From Candidatus Hadarchaeales archaeon (GTDB taxonomy: Archaea > Hadarchaeota > Hadarchaeia > Hadarchaeales > Hadarchaeaceae), in assembly GCA_038872135.1 (NCBI GenBank), contig JAVZGN010000009.1, positions 1 to 37,057 on the forward strand: a DNA stretch of 37,057 nt. Direction: 5' to 3'. This document shows positions 12,001 through 18,000 of this stretch, piece by piece (within the stretch, counting starts at the first letter, position 1; each line of letters opens with the position of its first letter). Made by a program: the position numbers.

Positions 12001-15000
12001 CATCTTCCCATTCTTCACCAAAGAAAAATGTTGCTGGGTGATATAAATCCACCCCGAGAGCTCACTTTTGTAGGTTTGACTCAAACCATTCCCTTATTTT
12101 ATCCATATCATCCTTAATCCCGAGGAATGAGGCAAACTTCTGGGAAGTGGTCAAAATTCTGGTTTTTCCATGGGGCCTAGACTCAACAAAACCAACATCG
12201 ATGAGTTTTTTCACCTGCTCGTAGGCTCTGCTCCCCCTGAGCTCCGCGAGCTTTGAGAGGGTTATCCCTGGGCGGTAGGCGATGATGGCGAGGGTCTTCA
12301 TCACCCCTCTCGATATCCTCTCCTTCTTGATCAACCCACCGAGGCGGTTAGCGATATCATCCTGCATCTTTACCGTGAATGCCTCCCCGGGGCTCTCGAC
12401 CAGGACAAATACTCCTCCCCTTTCGGAAAATCTCTGTCTCAGAATGCCGATCACTTCATTGACATAGGTCTCGGAGGAGCTGCCGATTATCTTTCCTATT
12501 TCTTTTGGGGTGAGCGGATGGTCGGCGGCGTAGAGAGCGGCTTCGACAATTTTAACATCTTCCTCTATGCCCATCACTTCTCACCAGAAAGGGTTATCCT
12601 TATCTCCCCAAAAGGCTCATCCTGCTGCATCCTGATTTTTCCATCGGTGCAGAGGAAAAGCAGGGAGATGAACACCCAGAGAATCTCCTCCCTCGTCTTC
12701 ACCGGAACTAAATCTAGGAGGGTCAAAAAACCAGAAGATTTCAGAGCTTCTTTTATTCTGGTGTAAACGAGGGGGATTTTCTCTTCGAGGGTGATATCCG
12801 AGTCCTGTATTGCCTTGAAATCCTCTTTCCCCCACGCCCTGACCTCAGGTTTTATTTCCTGGGCCTCCTCTAAAGGGATTTCCTTCAGGGCCTCTCTGAG
12901 ATAACCGAGAAGATCTTGAAGGGTTATCCTTCTGGGAGCGAGGTGGAGGAGGGTTATTTCTCCAAGGTCGGGGAGGTCATCTATCATCTCCAGAAGTTCG
13001 TCTGTTTCCTCCCCAATATTTTTCCCATTTCCATTCAGGGCGGCTTCAGATTTCATCCTCAGGAGGAATGCCGCTGTGTAAAGGATTTTGGCTGAGGCTC
13101 TTATGTCGCCCCACTCCCTTATTTTCTGAGAGTAGACCATAATCAATCTGCTTATGTCGACATCCCAGGGGTCGAGCCTACCTTCCCGGACAAGAGCCAC
13201 TAGCTCCTCCGCCGGCCGCTCGATCATTTTCATTCAATCACCCATCTTTGAGAGATCTATCGAGTAGACCTTTGAAACACCATTCTCCTTGGTTACCCCA
13301 AAGACCCTGTCTGCCACGGCCGCAAGGGAATGGTGGAGAGTGACGACCACTATCTGAGAGTCCTTCGAAAGCTTTCTGAGAAGTGCCGCAACTTTTCTCC
13401 TGTTGCTTGCATCCAGATGAGCATCGATCTCATCTAGGACATAGAATGTTGTTGGGCGGTATTTCTGGATCGCGAAAAGGAAGGCGAGTCCTGCAATTGT
13501 CTTCTCACCCCCGGAAAGTTGCTGGCTTTCACCGAAATCTGCCTCGATTATGACCCCGCCCTCAAATGGAGATTGCTCGTTTTCCAAGAGAAGTCTTCCT
13601 GAGCGCCCGTCGGTTAGCTCTGCAAACAGCTCTGAGAAGTTTTTCGCTATGGGCAAAAATGTTTGCATGAAGACCTCCTTCTTCTTTTCATCGATTTCCT
13701 TCATGTAGGCCAGAATCCTCTCACGCTCAGCGGTAAGCTTTTCCTCTTTCTGCCTTTCGCTGGCCAGTTCTGCCTCTTTCTGCGCCAGATCTTCCTGCGC
13801 CCTGAAATTTACATTTCCGAGGGCTGAAATCTCTTCACTTAAACTCTTTTCTCTCTCGAGAAGGCGGTCCAGGGTTTGTCTTGACATCTCCTCAAAGTTT
13901 ACCGAGATCTTCCCCAGTTCTTCCATCTTCCCCCCGAGCTTTTCATCGCAGGAAGTCAACTCTCCGCTCTTTCTCCCAATCTCTCCACTCAACCCTATGA
14001 GCTTGTTAGAAATGTTGCTTGCAAGGGTTCGCCAGCGCTCTGCCTTTGAAGCTAACAGCCCCTCCGTCTCTTTCAGTTTTTGGATTCTAGATGAAAGGCC
14101 GGCCTCTTGGGGGAGAAGCTTCTCCAACCGCCTTTTTGCGCTATCGACCTCCTCCCTACACTTGCTCAACATCATGTCGTAGGATGTCAGCTCTGCAACT
14201 AGCCTGCTTCTTTCCGAGAAATTGGCGATTTCCGGAATAGGACTCTTTCCTTCAGAAAATGCCGAAACTACTGAGCGGAAAATTTCTTCCAGCTCCCCCA
14301 GGACGGCCTTGAGCTGAGCGACGCTGCTCTTTGCCTCCTCGAGGGTCGTGGAATTCTCTATTTTTTCTATCAGCTGGACGGCTGCTCTCTTTACCTCTTC
14401 AAATCTCTGGAGGGGAGAGGAAGGCTGTGTTTCCGGTGAAGCTTCACTCATCGCATCGAGTTTTGCCTGAATCCTACTTCTCTCCCTCTCGTATTGTTTT
14501 ATCATTCCCTCAAGCGCCGAGATTCTGGTGCGAAGGTTTGCGACTTTCTCCATCACCTTTGATTCTTCAATTTTCTTTATTTTTTCCTGAATTTTCGCTA
14601 TCTTTTCTTCGTAGGTTTTTACCCTTTTTTCATAGATTTTCTTCCTTTTCTCAAGCTTTGCCATTTTTCTTTTTTCGTGCTTCATCGATTTCTCGAGCGA
14701 AGTCTTCTTCTTTAGCAGCACCTCCACCTCTTTCTGAAGGATTGCCCCCCTTACCTGCTGTAGCTCCATCTCCACCTGCTTGTACTTGAGCATCGCCTGG
14801 ACCTGCGACCTGAGACTTTCAATTGTCTTCTGCATCTCTCCCACCCTGGCGCGGAGGGCGTCGAGATTTCTGTCCACAGCGCTGAGCTCCGATTCTGCTG
14901 CCTTCTTTTTTGAATCATAGTCTGAGATACCTGCCAGCCTCTCTATGATTCCCCTCCTTTCCTCGGGATCCATCTCCACGATTTTCCCCACTTGCCCCTG

Positions 15001-18000
15001 AAAAACGAAGCTGAAGCTCTCTGGACCCCCCATTATCGGTGCGAGGAGGTCCACGATTGTCTGAAGCTCCGCCCGCTCATCGTTTATTTTATAAATGCAC
15101 TTTCCGCTTTTCTCCACCCTTCTCGTTATTTTAACGATTGGAGAGTTGACGGGAATTGAATTATCGGAATTGTCGATTGTGAGAGAAACCTCCGCGAAGG
15201 GAGCTAGAAACCGTTTTTTATTTTTCTTGTAGATGAAGTCTGTAAGCTGGGTCGCGCGCATGATTTTCTTGCTTTTCTCCCCAAAAACAAAAGAAAGGGC
15301 GTCTACAATGTTACTCTTCCCGGACCCATTTTTCCCTGTTATCGCCGTCAAACCTTTGGATAAGGGAATAACTACCTTTGCGTTGCCGAAGGATTTGAAT
15401 CCCCTTAGCTCTACCCCGCTGATGTATGGCAAGGTCTCGACCTTTGGCGAACCCCTCTCGCCCTCAGGTCGTCCCTTGCTAATAATCATTTACCGGTGGG
15501 GGTTAAAACTTTATCCATGGCCAGTAGAACCCCGCTGACTCTAGTGTAACCTTTGTTCCTTTTGGAAGCCATTTCAAAAACGACTTCCTCCTGTAGGTGA
15601 AGCACTTTTCCTGCCTCACAATTTTTCCATCCATTTCAATTACTGTTCCATGAGTTTGGCTCACTCGCGGAGCTACGACCACTTGAGCTACATCTTTCAC
15701 CTCCACACACATTTCTTTCGGAGGTTCTTAGATCTCCTGCAAACCGGCTAAAAGCGGTGGCCGACACCTTTTTATTACAAATCGTAAAATATATTTTAGG
15801 ATAAAATGGAAAATCGTAAAATAGACTTAATAAGAGAAGTAGTTTACAGAGTGTGGGAAAAGGGGTTGCCTAAACTCAAAAAAAGAGACAGGTCTCTTGA
15901 AACCGAAACCAGTTTAGTGAATGATATTGTGGGGGTGAGGAGGTCTGGAAAAACATCCATGATGTTTCTCACAATGGGCGAGCTGTCGAAAAGGTTTGGG
16001 CCAAGAAAAACAGTCTACATCAACTTCGAGGATCGTCGCCTCCTGCCGCTTGACGAGAGCTACTTCAACGCAATCGTCAGCTTCATACATTCCGAGAAGC
16101 TCCTTGAGGATGGCAAGGTATACCTCTTCCTTGATGAGGTTCAACACATAAACGGCTGGGAAAAATATGTTCGCAGCATTTATGACGAGTTCAAAAACAA
16201 GATCAAGATTTTCGTAAGCGGCTCAAGCCAGTCCCTCCTCAGCAAGGAATACGCCGAGTTGTTGACCGGCAGACACATAACCACGGTGGTATTCCCCCTC
16301 AGCTTCTCGGAATTTCTAGTGTTCAAGGGCTTCGATAGGAAGGAATACTACACGGAAGAGGAGAGAGCAGTGCTCGGCAAACTCCTAGAGGAGTACCTAG
16401 AGTTCGGCGGGTTCCCGGAAGTGGTCCAGAGCCGGGAGAAGGAGCAGATACTGGAGCAACTTTTCTATGATATAATAACGAGAGATGTGCTCGGGCGGGT
16501 CAGCCTGAAGAAGCCGAAGGTCATGGAGGATATCGCCTATTACATCTGCAGCAATATCGCGAATCCCATCAGCTTCAGCAGGTTTTCGAGGATGCTTGGC
16601 AGCAGAGGGATAAAGATTTCCGTTCCAACACTCGAGAACTACTTCAGGTACCTCCAGCAGGCCTTTTTGTTTTTTGATGTCCCAATCTTCTCCTACAGCG
16701 TCAAAAACCAGCTACAATATCCCAGAAAGATCTACTGCGTGGACAACGGCTTGGCAAATGTTGTCGGGTTCAGGATGGCCAAAAACCTCGGCAAACTTTG
16801 TGAGAATGCTGTTGCCATCGAGCTGCTTAGGTGGGCCTTTGAGAAACCCGCTAGAAAAATTTTTTACTGGAGGGACAGGAGCAAGAGAGAAGTTGACTTT
16901 GTGCTTAAAGAGGGGGCCGATGTTGTCGGGCTGATTCAGGTTTGTCTTGATTTATCCGATCCAGATGTGAAGAAGCGTGAGATGAAGCCTCTGCTCAAGG
17001 CCATGGAAGAATTTAGACTGAAGCGGGGGGTTGTGCTCACAGGAGATCTCGAAGGGAGTGAAACAATGGGCAGCAGAACTATAGAGTTTAAACCACTTTG
17101 GAAGTGGTTGCTGGAAAAATCGTGAGTATGGTCCAATTTTGGCGGAAAACTAGAATTTTTGAAGAGATGTTAAACAGCCATCGAATACCGAAATGGGGTT
17201 ATTTGACCAGAAACTCGCTCAATTTCTCAGGCTTTAACTTCATCCCGAGGCCTGGGCCTTTCGGGAGGGCCAGATATCCTTTTTCAAAGATTTCGAGCGG
17301 CTCCTCAAGGAGGCCTGTGTTGAGGAGGTTGTCCTGCTTGTACATATACTCGTATGCGATGAAGCTCTTCTTTGGCGTTGCGGCCGAAGCGTGTAAACCT
17401 GCGGCCCTGCTCCCGGGCCCAGAAAGGCCGACATGGGGTGCAAGCTTGACGCCATTGGCCTCGCAGAGCTTGAGAATCCTGAGATACTCTGTGAGGCCAC
17501 CGCACCTGCTCAGGTTTGGTTGGACCACATCTAGGCCACCCCTAACGATGAAATCTCTGAAGGTGTAGCTGGAGAAGAGGGACTCCCCGCCGGCAATGCT
17601 CATGTCCAGAGATTTTGCCAACCTCACGTAGCCATCAACATCGTGGGGGGGGATGGGCTCCTCAAACCACTTAACCTCCAACTTTTCGAACTGCCTTCCT
17701 ATCTTCAGGGCTTCCTCCACAGAGAAGGCGGAATTTGCGTCGACCATTATCTCGATGTCTTTTCCCACAGCATCCCTCACCGCTTTTATCATCTTCACAT
17801 CGGCGTCCTTTCCGCCACCCATCTTGCTGGCCCCAACCTTTATCTTCAACTGATCGTGCCCTGCCTCCACAAGCTTCACGGCTTCCTTTGCAACCTCCTC
17901 GGGGGCGGTTTTTGTGAAGTAATGCCAGTAAATGGAAGAAGCATATGCCTTGATTTTCTCCATGGTTGGGCCGCCGAGCAGCCTGTAGACTGGTTTATCT

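Follow-up and report, generated by a model that had tools for sequence, protein, structure and literature searches.

The window analysed here, a stretch of 37,057 bp from a Candidatus Hadarchaeales genome (1.08 Mb, 91% complete), carries an operon of the three genes smc, scpA and scpB (Table 1). The reading frames agree with the genome-wide survey's note, which had placed the operon at 12062..15489 and given Smc a length of 751 aa. In a family profile search the C-terminal part of the scpA product matched PF02616 (42.4 bits) and Rad21_Rec8 (25.9 bits) and its N-terminal part matched NF000994 at residues 7-86, while the scpB product matched PF04079 with 96.2 bits. The real Smc may be shorter, at about 732 aa, because its homologues begin at residue 20, codon 20 is a TTG (15430-15432) and residues 1-17 have a pLDDT below 50 in the structural model.

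Table 1. Genes of the smc-scpA-scpB operon and parts of the Smc protein
Feature	Position	Strand	Description
smc	13234..15489	-	751 aa, hinge-less, short-armed Smc
scpA (kleisin)	12574..13233	-	219 aa; ATG directly after the smc stop codon
scpB (kite)	12062..12577	-	171 aa; overlaps scpA by 4 bases
N-terminal head half	14926..15432	-	residues 20-188; Walker A G52-S59, R78, Q-loop Q164; matches residues 1-181 of 5xei and 4i99
N-terminal arm helix	14443..14925	-	residues 189-349, ~161 aa (AlphaFold2); aligns to canonical profile positions 170-338
Apex	14239..14442	-	residues 350-417: loop, helix 359-378, turn 379-382, helix 383-412, loop
C-terminal arm	13615..14238	-	residues 418-625; joint-like breaks at 528-539 and 558-563; aligns to canonical positions 797-1007
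C-terminal head half	13237..13614	-	residues 626-751; signature S659-G661, Walker B D686-E687, D-loop D689

Both head halves of Smc are present. The protein matched SMC_N with 219.1 bits, and every element of a split ABC ATPase head (Walker A, Q-loop, signature motif, Walker B and D-loop) was found; G52, N54, G55, G57, K58, S59, R78, Q164, S659-G661, D686, E687 and D689 are invariant or nearly so in an alignment of 86 family members. The best solved structure was the Pyrococcus Smc head 5xei (E 2.8e-105; Pyrococcus Smc heads overall ranged from there to 7.4e-90), compared with 2.1e-16 for Rad50, and 5xei was also the top Foldseek match of the whole Smc model (E 9.1e-35). The note's values for SMC_N (219 bits), SMC_prok_A (486.7 bits) and the Smc head were all obtained again, as was its picture of two retained head halves in an operon with ScpA and ScpB. 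Against the curated SMC models TIGR02169 and TIGR02168 the protein reached 486.7 and 411.4 bits and stayed below both cut-offs (729.4 and 567.35). Low scores over the whole protein, like its fast evolution, count against our main reading of the operon. They also leave room for the view that the protein is another member of the SMC superfamily, of the Rad50, RecN or ASRP type, or an assembly artefact. We regard this as scarcely credible. The heads resemble Smc much more than any of these types, since Rad50 scored 126.6 bits, RecN (TIGR00634) 83.8 bits against a cut-off of 407.85 and ASRP (archaea-specific SMC-related protein, NF045487) 90.4 bits against a cut-off of 300 and in the C-terminal part only; a separate Rad50 with a CPVC hook is encoded on contig C24, and the gene sits in an operon with scpA and scpB. 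The same architecture also recurs across 62 genomes and in over 80 metagenomic proteins that come from several sources.

It is between the heads that the protein departs from a canonical Smc. An AlphaFold2 model based on the 86-sequence alignment (mean pLDDT 81.6) gave the arm and apex helices listed in Table 1 and no strands outside the heads, so that the helical arms and the two short apex helices of the survey's earlier model, built on 6 sequences, were recovered. Lengths in the family range from 703 to 815 aa and the arms are nearly free of gaps. When the family profile was aligned with a canonical SMC profile (hhalign), canonical positions 339-424 and 484-796 remained unmatched. The arms thus fall short of the usual ~320-350 residues per strand, and these ~400 unmatched positions, together with the modelled helices, bear out the claim that about half of each coiled-coil arm is gone. 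These data show the architecture and the conservation of the ATPase motifs.

No hinge was detectable in the smc gene or elsewhere in the genome. PF06470 did not match the Smc protein even at E<=1, nor the six-frame translation of its genome at E<=10, whereas the control gave a match in 11 of 14 genomes, 10 of them over the cut-off. Six-frame searches found no match over the cut-off in any of the 65 genomes of the order. Three weaker matches in the order (E 0.002-0.01) lie outside the SMC, in proteins of 728-773 aa; they were rejected as hinges since their carriers are Hel308-like helicases. Among the 66 genomes of the phylum only G065, the one genome that does not belong to the Hadarchaeales, has PF06470 (96.5 bits), within an SMC of 1140 aa that exceeds the curated Smc cut-off at 844.6 bits; the survey's counts of one genome in 66 and 10 of 14 controls are the same. 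A hinge HMM built from 34 canonical SMCs and run with filters off gave nothing better than E 0.4 in the 86 family members. It might be thought that a strongly diverged hinge persists in the apex, which occupies the position expected of one. This is very unlikely. Alignment of the apex with the hinge profile gave a probability of 0.7% (hhalign), and the apex spans only 60-132 residues in the family and is modelled as entirely helical, compared with a Pfam hinge stretch of ~110-120 residues in other SMCs. Moreover Pfam does detect hinges in 21 other short SMCs, at 80-122 bits, and a further one has a partial match (29.2 bits).

In place of the hinge we observed a conserved helical hairpin of about 55 residues. 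The loops that flank it vary in length, which accounts for the variable span of the apex. F363, F370, L373, L397 and L400 are conserved, F363 and F370 in 93% and L397 in 95% of the sequences, and the share of strictly hydrophobic positions is 27-30% in the tip helices compared with 16-18% in the middle and distal arms. Helix 2 of the tip has an additional hydrophobic column at 389, 396 and 403. One hydrophobic stripe per tip helix would suffice for a simple intramolecular hairpin, which counts against pairing of two tips. A central CxxC or Cys motif was found in the apex of none of the 86 members. The apex modelled alone (pLDDT 86.0) had no Foldseek match in the PDB at E<=0.001, the best being a coiled-coil segment of Pyrococcus Smc (5xg2, E 0.018), and VIA-align wide gave tied Z scores of ~9-11 to many coiled-coil hairpins, a range common for helical models. 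Neither the fold of a hinge, nor that of the MukB hinge or of a hook, was singled out by these searches, which do not argue against any of them. Complex prediction with two copies of residues 285-485 scored 0.35, 0.35 and 0.31 against a mark of 0.42, with controls at 0.00, and gives no evidence either way.

The operon is conserved and spread across the order, which here equals the class and comprises 65 genomes, all of them, like G065, metagenome bins (56-95% complete). At E<=1e-20 a Smc orthologue was found in 62 of the 65. Of these, 49, including the genome studied here, gave matches that cover almost the entire query, in open frames of 706-821 aa (one of 915), and the remaining 13 orthologues are split at contig ends. 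Although 14 of the 49 full-length rows list a stop inside the matched span, the frame was intact (759-768 aa) in the eight that were checked as loci. Neither smc nor scpB was found in the other three genomes; as these are 75-93% complete, the assembly may just have missed the locus. All the main counts of the survey were reproduced; it had found the orthologue in 63 of 66 genomes and assigned the hinge-less state to the whole order. The partnership with ScpA and ScpB is seen as gene presence and linkage: scpB was found in 63 of the phylum's 66 genomes, 62 of them Hadarchaeales. Of these 62 loci, 60 have scpB 625-711 bp downstream of smc on the same strand, and the other two are cut by contig ends. 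The public record of Candidatus Hadarchaeum yellowstonense YNP_45 (LQMQ01000044.1) shows this arrangement too, with smc (753 aa), scpA, scpB and rpS8e in that order. No expression data came to light: a search of sequencing runs listed no RNA run, and among the runs listed a single one contained at least half of the sampled words. Among the matches listed in a profile search of public contigs with the mini-Smc alignment were one Hadarchaeota record and 78 ordinary SMC loci, which is no measure of spread outside the phylum.

Head-domain trees were calculated with FastTree (78 rows) and IQ-TREE (LG+G4, 52 rows). The mini-Smc family came out as a single clade (SH 99 and 100) among the canonical SMCs of archaea and grouped weakly (support 85) with those of the Thermococcales type. 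The survey had described G065 as a sister lineage with a canonical SMC. Its hinge-bearing SMC was confirmed, but the sister status comes from taxonomy only, as the head trees did not resolve G065 as sister of the mini-Smc clade. Grouping the mini-SMCs with only the short hinge-bearing DPANN-like rows was rejected (p-AU 3.5e-7), whereas sisterhood to the whole DPANN-like clade was not (p-AU 0.06); both groupings were defined with the tree already in view. Since hinges are generally present in other archaeal SMCs, loss is favoured over ancestral absence. A canonical archaeal ancestor would then have lost ~400 internal residues, namely its hinge together with the half of each arm farther from the heads.

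A second SMC-like operon lies on contig C4, with genes for a 632-aa SMC-like protein, a 264-aa ScpA-like protein and a weakly MAGE-like protein of 196 aa. The survey's 'only Smc' is therefore the sole Smc orthologue of the genome but not its sole SMC-like motor. Matches to the 632-aa gene occur in 52 of the 66 genomes of the phylum, though not in G065, and identity is 43-60%, compared with 34-42% for mini-Smc across the order (38-39% even within the genus). Judged by these identities, the faster evolution of mini-Smc could reflect relaxed constraint, and one might suppose that it is a decaying relic whose role in chromosome organisation has passed to the SMC-like, kleisin-like and kite-like operon on C4. 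The distribution and better conservation of the second system fit this idea, which we nevertheless consider improbable: the orthologue persists in 62 of 65 genomes, its frames are intact and vary little in length, the ATPase motifs and the operon are conserved, and the genomes without smc are those in which the locus is perhaps unassembled.

The locus is thus probably a complete condensin operon, with a Smc that derives from a canonical archaeal SMC by loss of the internal ~400 residues and carries a new tip. What is retained would be the two ATPase head halves and the head-proximal arm with its joint-like break, ending in the two-helix tip. By analogy with other Smc-ScpAB complexes, ATP would drive engagement of the heads, and ScpA would bridge the two heads with ScpB bound to it. 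The arms of such a motor would be ~25-28 nm long compared with the usual ~47-49 nm. We tentatively propose, at somewhat under even chances, that the conserved hydrophobic stripes of two tips come together as a four-helix bundle, and that this tip-to-tip contact closes the ring in place of the hinge. The tips might instead be unpaired, the ATP-engaged heads and the ScpA bridge alone holding the complex together as a DNA clamp without a closed Smc lumen. This is a possibility to which we give about one chance in three. It would agree with the lack of a recognisable dimerisation module, with the likeness of the apex model to plain antiparallel coiled-coil hairpins and with the lack of the Cys motif throughout the family. 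However, the core of the hairpin is conserved and richer in hydrophobic positions than the arm next to it, whereas the loops around it vary freely, a pattern that fits a module with its own job, and to our knowledge the far ends are joined in every SMC-type protein, by a hinge, a zinc hook or the RecN tip. Whether a minimal helical-hairpin bundle links the ends or nothing does, the chances seem to us evenly balanced that the Hadarchaeales run a working Smc-ScpAB without a hinge and with arms of half length.

The canonical archaeal Smc-ScpAB of Pyrococcus and Thermococcus (5xei, 5xns, 4i99, 5xg2) is the nearest group in the head trees and shares the heads, neck, cap, joint-like break, ATPase motifs and both partners. 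Compared with it, mini-Smc is ~400 residues shorter, with arms of about half the length and a helical hairpin instead of a hinge. Rad50, RecN and Lamassu LmuB are SMC-like ATPases whose arms also end in a hairpin. Like mini-Smc they combine a head with an antiparallel coiled coil without a hinge, and the apex aligns with them at the same generic Z of ~9-11, but mini-Smc has no zinc hook, its heads are of the Smc and not the Rad50/RecN type, and its partners are ScpA and ScpB. Among the short SMCs of DPANN-like archaea, some have a hinge, some lack it and some carry a CPxC motif in the centre. The hinge-bearing ones (799-873 aa; one source is Candidatus Naiadarchaeales) have arms of similar length, with the hinge starting at ~340-355, but they keep PF06470 (80-122 bits) and form a separate clade (SH 96-97). 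According to the accessible text of PMC5344682, the Rad50 zinc hook can stand in for the hinge of B. subtilis Smc while growth remains normal, and the arm lengths of natural SMCs have a minor mode at 163 aa, beside which the 161-aa N-terminal arm helix of mini-Smc may be placed. The engineered Mini-Smc and Smc(Zh) described there likewise have arms shortened to permitted lengths and an unrelated dimeriser in exchange for the hinge; as far as that text goes they always keep a dimerisation domain, whereas none is recognisable in the Hadarchaeales Smc. A hinge-less SMC clade was reported from marine bacteria in 2025 (PMC12153180). In the part of that report available to us it shares SMC-type heads, an antiparallel coiled coil and the lack of both hinge and CXXC hook with mini-Smc; it consists of gene-catalogue proteins assigned near Actinomycetes, given there without ScpAB context, and the comparison is one of architecture only, while mini-Smc is archaeal, lineage-wide and encoded in an scpAB operon. 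The hinge-less trait is not unique to the Hadarchaeales, given the DPANN-like cases found here and, as far as its description extends, the marine clade. A literature search, which did not extend to subscription journals and bioRxiv supplements, found no report of such a SMC in Hadarchaeota or Hadesarchaea.

The hinge is generally treated as a defining and essential part of SMC proteins. It is seen as their invariable site of dimerisation, and some models also give it a role in DNA binding or as a gate. A Smc-ScpAB that lacks it throughout a lineage is a natural test of the need for it, and separates functions that depend on the hinge from those that need only heads, kleisin and arms of permitted length. 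With a Smc of ~730 aa it is also a natural minimal system, small enough for structural work on the complete complex. It extends to natural proteins the engineering result, as given in the accessible text of PMC5344682, that the kind of dimerisation domain matters little. If our reading is true, loss or replacement of the hinge would be a recurrent natural outcome, as the DPANN-like SMCs with a central CPxC also suggest, and only the heads, the kleisin and arms of permitted length would be essential to SMC action.

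The genes smc, scpA and scpB are closely packed on the minus strand: the stop codon of smc is immediately followed by the ATG of scpA, and scpA and scpB overlap by 4 bases. Their Pfam matches confirmed the operon with ScpA and ScpB described in the genome-wide survey's note. The top NCBIfam model for Smc was SMC_prok_A (TIGR02169) with 486.7 bits, below the cut-off of 729.4, followed by Rad50 (126.6), the archaea-specific SMC-related protein ASRP (90.4) and RecN (83.8 bits). The closest solved structures were head constructs of Pyrococcus Smc (5xei, 2.8e-105; 5xns, 7.4e-98; 4i99, 7.4e-90), and Rad50 head structures matched at only about 2e-16. 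Because homologues begin at residue 20, encoded by TTG, and the model is of low confidence over residues 1-17 (pLDDT below 50), the true length of Smc may be about 732 aa. An ATPase gene of the AAA_14/DUF4143 type lies upstream of smc in divergent orientation.

Features of the window, of the AlphaFold2 model of its Smc, and of a second SMC-like system on contig C4 of the same genome (L043, a locus from C4)
Feature	Position	Strand	Details
smc	13234-15489	minus	751 aa; SMC_N 219.1 bits (Pfam)
scpA	12574-13233	minus	219 aa; SMC_ScpA 42.4 bits, Rad21_Rec8 25.9 bits (Pfam)
scpB	12062-12577	minus	171 aa; SMC_ScpB 96.2 bits (Pfam)
Ribosomal protein S8e gene	11616-12011	minus	directly downstream of scpB
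AAA_14/DUF4143 ATPase	15806-17125	plus	
TiaS-type tRNA-modifying enzyme	20078-21400	plus	
Low-GC stretch	34001-36000		GC content falls to 0.40, about 0.50-0.53 elsewhere
Open frame	34609-36114	minus	501 aa; overlaps the low-GC stretch
Smc head			strands and helices (AlphaFold2 model)
Smc N-arm helix	residues 189-349		AlphaFold2 model
Smc loop	residues 350-358		AlphaFold2 model
Smc apex helices	residues 359-378 and 383-412		turn 379-382 (AlphaFold2 model)
Smc loop	residues 413-417		AlphaFold2 model
Smc C-arm	residues 418-625		breaks 528-539 and 558-563 (AlphaFold2 model)
Second system, operon	C4 64491-67748		
SMC-like ATPase	L043:4492-6390		632 aa
ScpA-like protein	L043:6387-7181		264 aa; N-terminus like that of ScpA, pairwise E 0.003
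Weakly MAGE-like (Nse3-like) protein	L043:7159-7749		196 aa; MAGE-homology match E 0.003

The AlphaFold2 model of Smc was built from 86 sequences (mean pLDDT 81.6, pTM 0.50), and its top Foldseek match was 5xei (E 9.1e-35), a structure of an Smc head that includes coiled coil and joint. The ATPase motifs were invariant or nearly so among the 86 sequences (G52, N54, G55, G57, K58, S59, R78, Q164, S659-G661, D686, E687 and D689). The family is narrow in length, and its arms are nearly free of gaps in the alignment. When the family profile was aligned with that of canonical SMCs (E 2e-165), residues 20-357 corresponded to canonical positions 1-338 and residues 416-751 to positions 797-1138, while canonical positions 339-424 and 484-796 had no counterpart. 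Each arm therefore retains its head-proximal half, and the hinge and the distal halves are missing. The earlier description, both head halves kept on arms of about half length, holds.

The claim that the protein lacks a hinge was likewise borne out. A Pfam search of the operon proteins did not detect SMC_hinge (PF06470) in Smc even at E<=1, and searching the window's own genome (1.08 Mb, 34 contigs, 91% complete) in all six frames gave no PF06470 match at E<=10; the same search was positive in 11 of 14 control genomes. None of the 65 genomes of the order Hadarchaeales, which equals its class, had PF06470 over the cut-off. Three matches in the order at E 0.002-0.01 were set aside as Hel308-like helicases of 728-773 aa on other contigs. 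A hinge HMM derived from 34 canonical archaeal SMCs found nothing better than E 0.4 in the 86 family members with filters off, and alignment of the apex profile with the hinge profile (hhalign) returned a probability of 0.7%. Within the phylum Hadarchaeota (66 genomes), PF06470 occurred only in G065, the sole genome outside the order, with 96.5 bits. It lies in an SMC of 1140 aa (1144 aa in the note) that clears the SMC_prok_A cut-off (844.6 bits).

An Smc orthologue was found at E<=1e-20 in 62 of the 65 genomes of the order (24 of 25 among those of high quality). The match was single and covered nearly the full query in 49 genomes, including the window's own, where the open frames measured 706-821 aa apart from one of 915 aa; in the other 13, smc was split across contig ends. 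A stop was listed inside the matched span in 14 full-length rows, and the frame was intact (759-768 aa) in all eight of those examined. G001, G005 and G062 lacked smc and also scpB. ScpB was found in 63 of the 66 phylum genomes. Of the 62 Hadarchaeales genomes with ScpB, 60 have scpB downstream of smc and on its strand, 625-711 bp away, a gap that fits one scpA; in the other two, contig ends cut the locus. The smc and scpB genes of G065 are on separate contigs. Candidatus Hadarchaeum yellowstonense YNP_45, in its public record, has the gene order of the window: an smc of 753 aa that lacks a hinge, then scpA, scpB and the S8e gene. About 80 more members, 703-815 aa long and drawn from several sources, came from a large protein collection, with a precomputed hinge in none; Candidatus Hadarchaeota and Hadarchaeales are among their source names. 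One member, P0054 (754 aa), is labelled 'Candidatus Hodarchaeaceae archaeon'. Hodarchaeaceae is an Asgard family in the NCBI taxonomy, and the label may stem from mixed-up names or from a binning problem. In a representative library 13 clusters matched end to end, 11 of them full-length, and the next matches were ordinary SMCs aligned by their heads only.

Phylogenetic trees were based on head columns only (409 columns; FastTree with 78 rows, IQ-TREE LG+G4 with 52 rows). The Hadarchaeal family formed a single clade in both (SH 99 and 100), and both placed it with Thermococcales-type and two other canonical SMCs (1175-1197 aa) with a support of just 85. The SMC of G065 fell near this group without a resolved placement, and the sister position once assigned to G065 is not resolved in these trees. 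DPANN-like archaeal short SMCs formed a separate clade (SH 96-97). Two groupings, both chosen with the tree already in view, were tested: one uniting the Hadarchaeal family with the short hinge-bearing rows alone was rejected (p-AU 3.5e-7), and one making the family sister to the entire DPANN-like clade was not (p-AU 0.06). Because of these results, it is likely that the Hadarchaeal Smc was shortened independently of the DPANN-like SMCs.

Among 33 other SMC representatives of 781-991 aa, PF06470 was present in 22 and absent from 11. Eighteen of the 22 have 799-873 aa and a hinge starting around residue 340-355, or at 406 in one protein with a 65-residue N-terminal extension; they include P0091, P0094, P0135, P0137, P0140 and P0142, and a cluster among them bears the name Candidatus Naiadarchaeales. 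In arm length these proteins come close to the Hadarchaeal Smc, near the 163-aa minor mode of PMC5344682. Nine of the 11 representatives without PF06470 formed a clade (SH 100) within the DPANN-like group, and six of the 11 carry a central CPxC. Proteins with CPxC at the hinge position and SMC-type heads are P0166, P0178, P0208, P0235, P0248 and P0265 (946-991 aa); P0166, a member of the SH 100 clade, scored 543 bits with SMC_prok_A against about 105-109 with Rad50 models. These proteins are nested in the DPANN-like clade, next to relatives that lack a hinge and whose cluster names read Candidatus Pacearchaeota, and may represent a natural swap of the hinge for a zinc hook. Another SMC, P0145 (976 aa), contains an intein (Intein_splicing, 93.7 bits, residues 46-194) in the N-terminal head, adjoining the Walker A region. 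In the ESM Atlas, clusters of SMC_N proteins of 722-882 aa from Minisyncoccota, Actinomycetota and Moraniibacteriota have Pfam listings that lack a hinge. As a lead only, these clusters hint that bacteria with small genomes may often have short hinge-less SMCs.

Beyond the observed architecture, motif conservation and operon of the Hadarchaeales Smc-ScpAB, its working can be sketched by analogy with characterised Smc-ScpAB. The heads would engage upon ATP, and ScpA, with ScpB bound, would link one Smc at its neck to the other at its cap. The arms, at 161-192 residues per strand, would measure about 25-28 nm. According to Bürmann et al. (PMC5344682), full-length arms measure about 47 nm, natural arm lengths are multimodal (major modes 238, 341 and 515 aa; minor modes 163 and 423 aa), and the Smc hinge can be replaced by a Rad50 zinc hook with normal growth. 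The 161-aa N-arm helix is close to the minor 163-aa mode, although that estimator required a hinge to define an arm.

The segment between the arms (residues 350-417) varies from 60 to 132 residues across the family because the two loops flanking the apex core vary; the window's Smc, with 68, is among the shorter ones. The core itself is conserved, with the consensus SLSSKFxxLxxxFxxLxxxL, a short Ser-containing turn and LxxLxxVLxxL; conservation reaches 93% of sequences for F363 and for F370, and 95% for L397. Columns that are strictly hydrophobic are denser in the tip helices (27-30%) than in the mid and distal arms (16-18%), and positions 389, 396 and 403 of apex helix 2 form a third hydrophobic column. 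We tentatively propose that two of these conserved hairpins could pair into a four-helix bundle joining the far ends, a reading whose chances appear close to balanced. A model of the apex only (residues 300-470, 30 sequences, pLDDT 86.0) gave the same helices as the whole model. It resembled only generic antiparallel coiled-coil hairpins, the top one being the Pyrococcus Smc mid-arm segment 5xg2, which was non-significant, and a central CxxC occurred in none of the 86 family members. Alternatively, the far ends may have no joint at all, a rival reading that we consider somewhat less likely than pairing.

The same genome encodes a second SMC-like system on contig C4. Its SMC-like ATPase scored 180 bits with SMC_prok_A and 57.8 with ASRP, the latter under the cut-off, and possessed neither hinge nor hook. 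The gene was matched in 52 of the 66 phylum genomes with 43-60% identity; G065 gave no match at E<=1e-30. The open frame was longer in several genomes, about 863-952 aa, possibly by fusion with the downstream gene. The system may be the 'SMC5/6-related aSMC' of PMC8665677. One could speculate that it eased the reshaping of the canonical Smc.

Our literature search found no paper on a hinge-less SMC of Hadarchaeota: in PMC11057702, SMC serves only as a dating marker, and the passages of PMC8665677 that were read do not mention the Hadarchaeota case. PMC12153180 (2025) reports a 'hinge-less' SMC clade, marine and abundant, that lies near Actinomycetes and has no CXXC motif, and it discusses hinge loss. 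This clade, the short SMC representatives and the ESM Atlas clusters make the Hadarchaeal case less unique. A hinge-less SMC is partly precedented in print, and the Hadarchaeal variant is new: an Smc-ScpAB system that is real and shared across the lineage, and whose Smc has short arms and no hinge.
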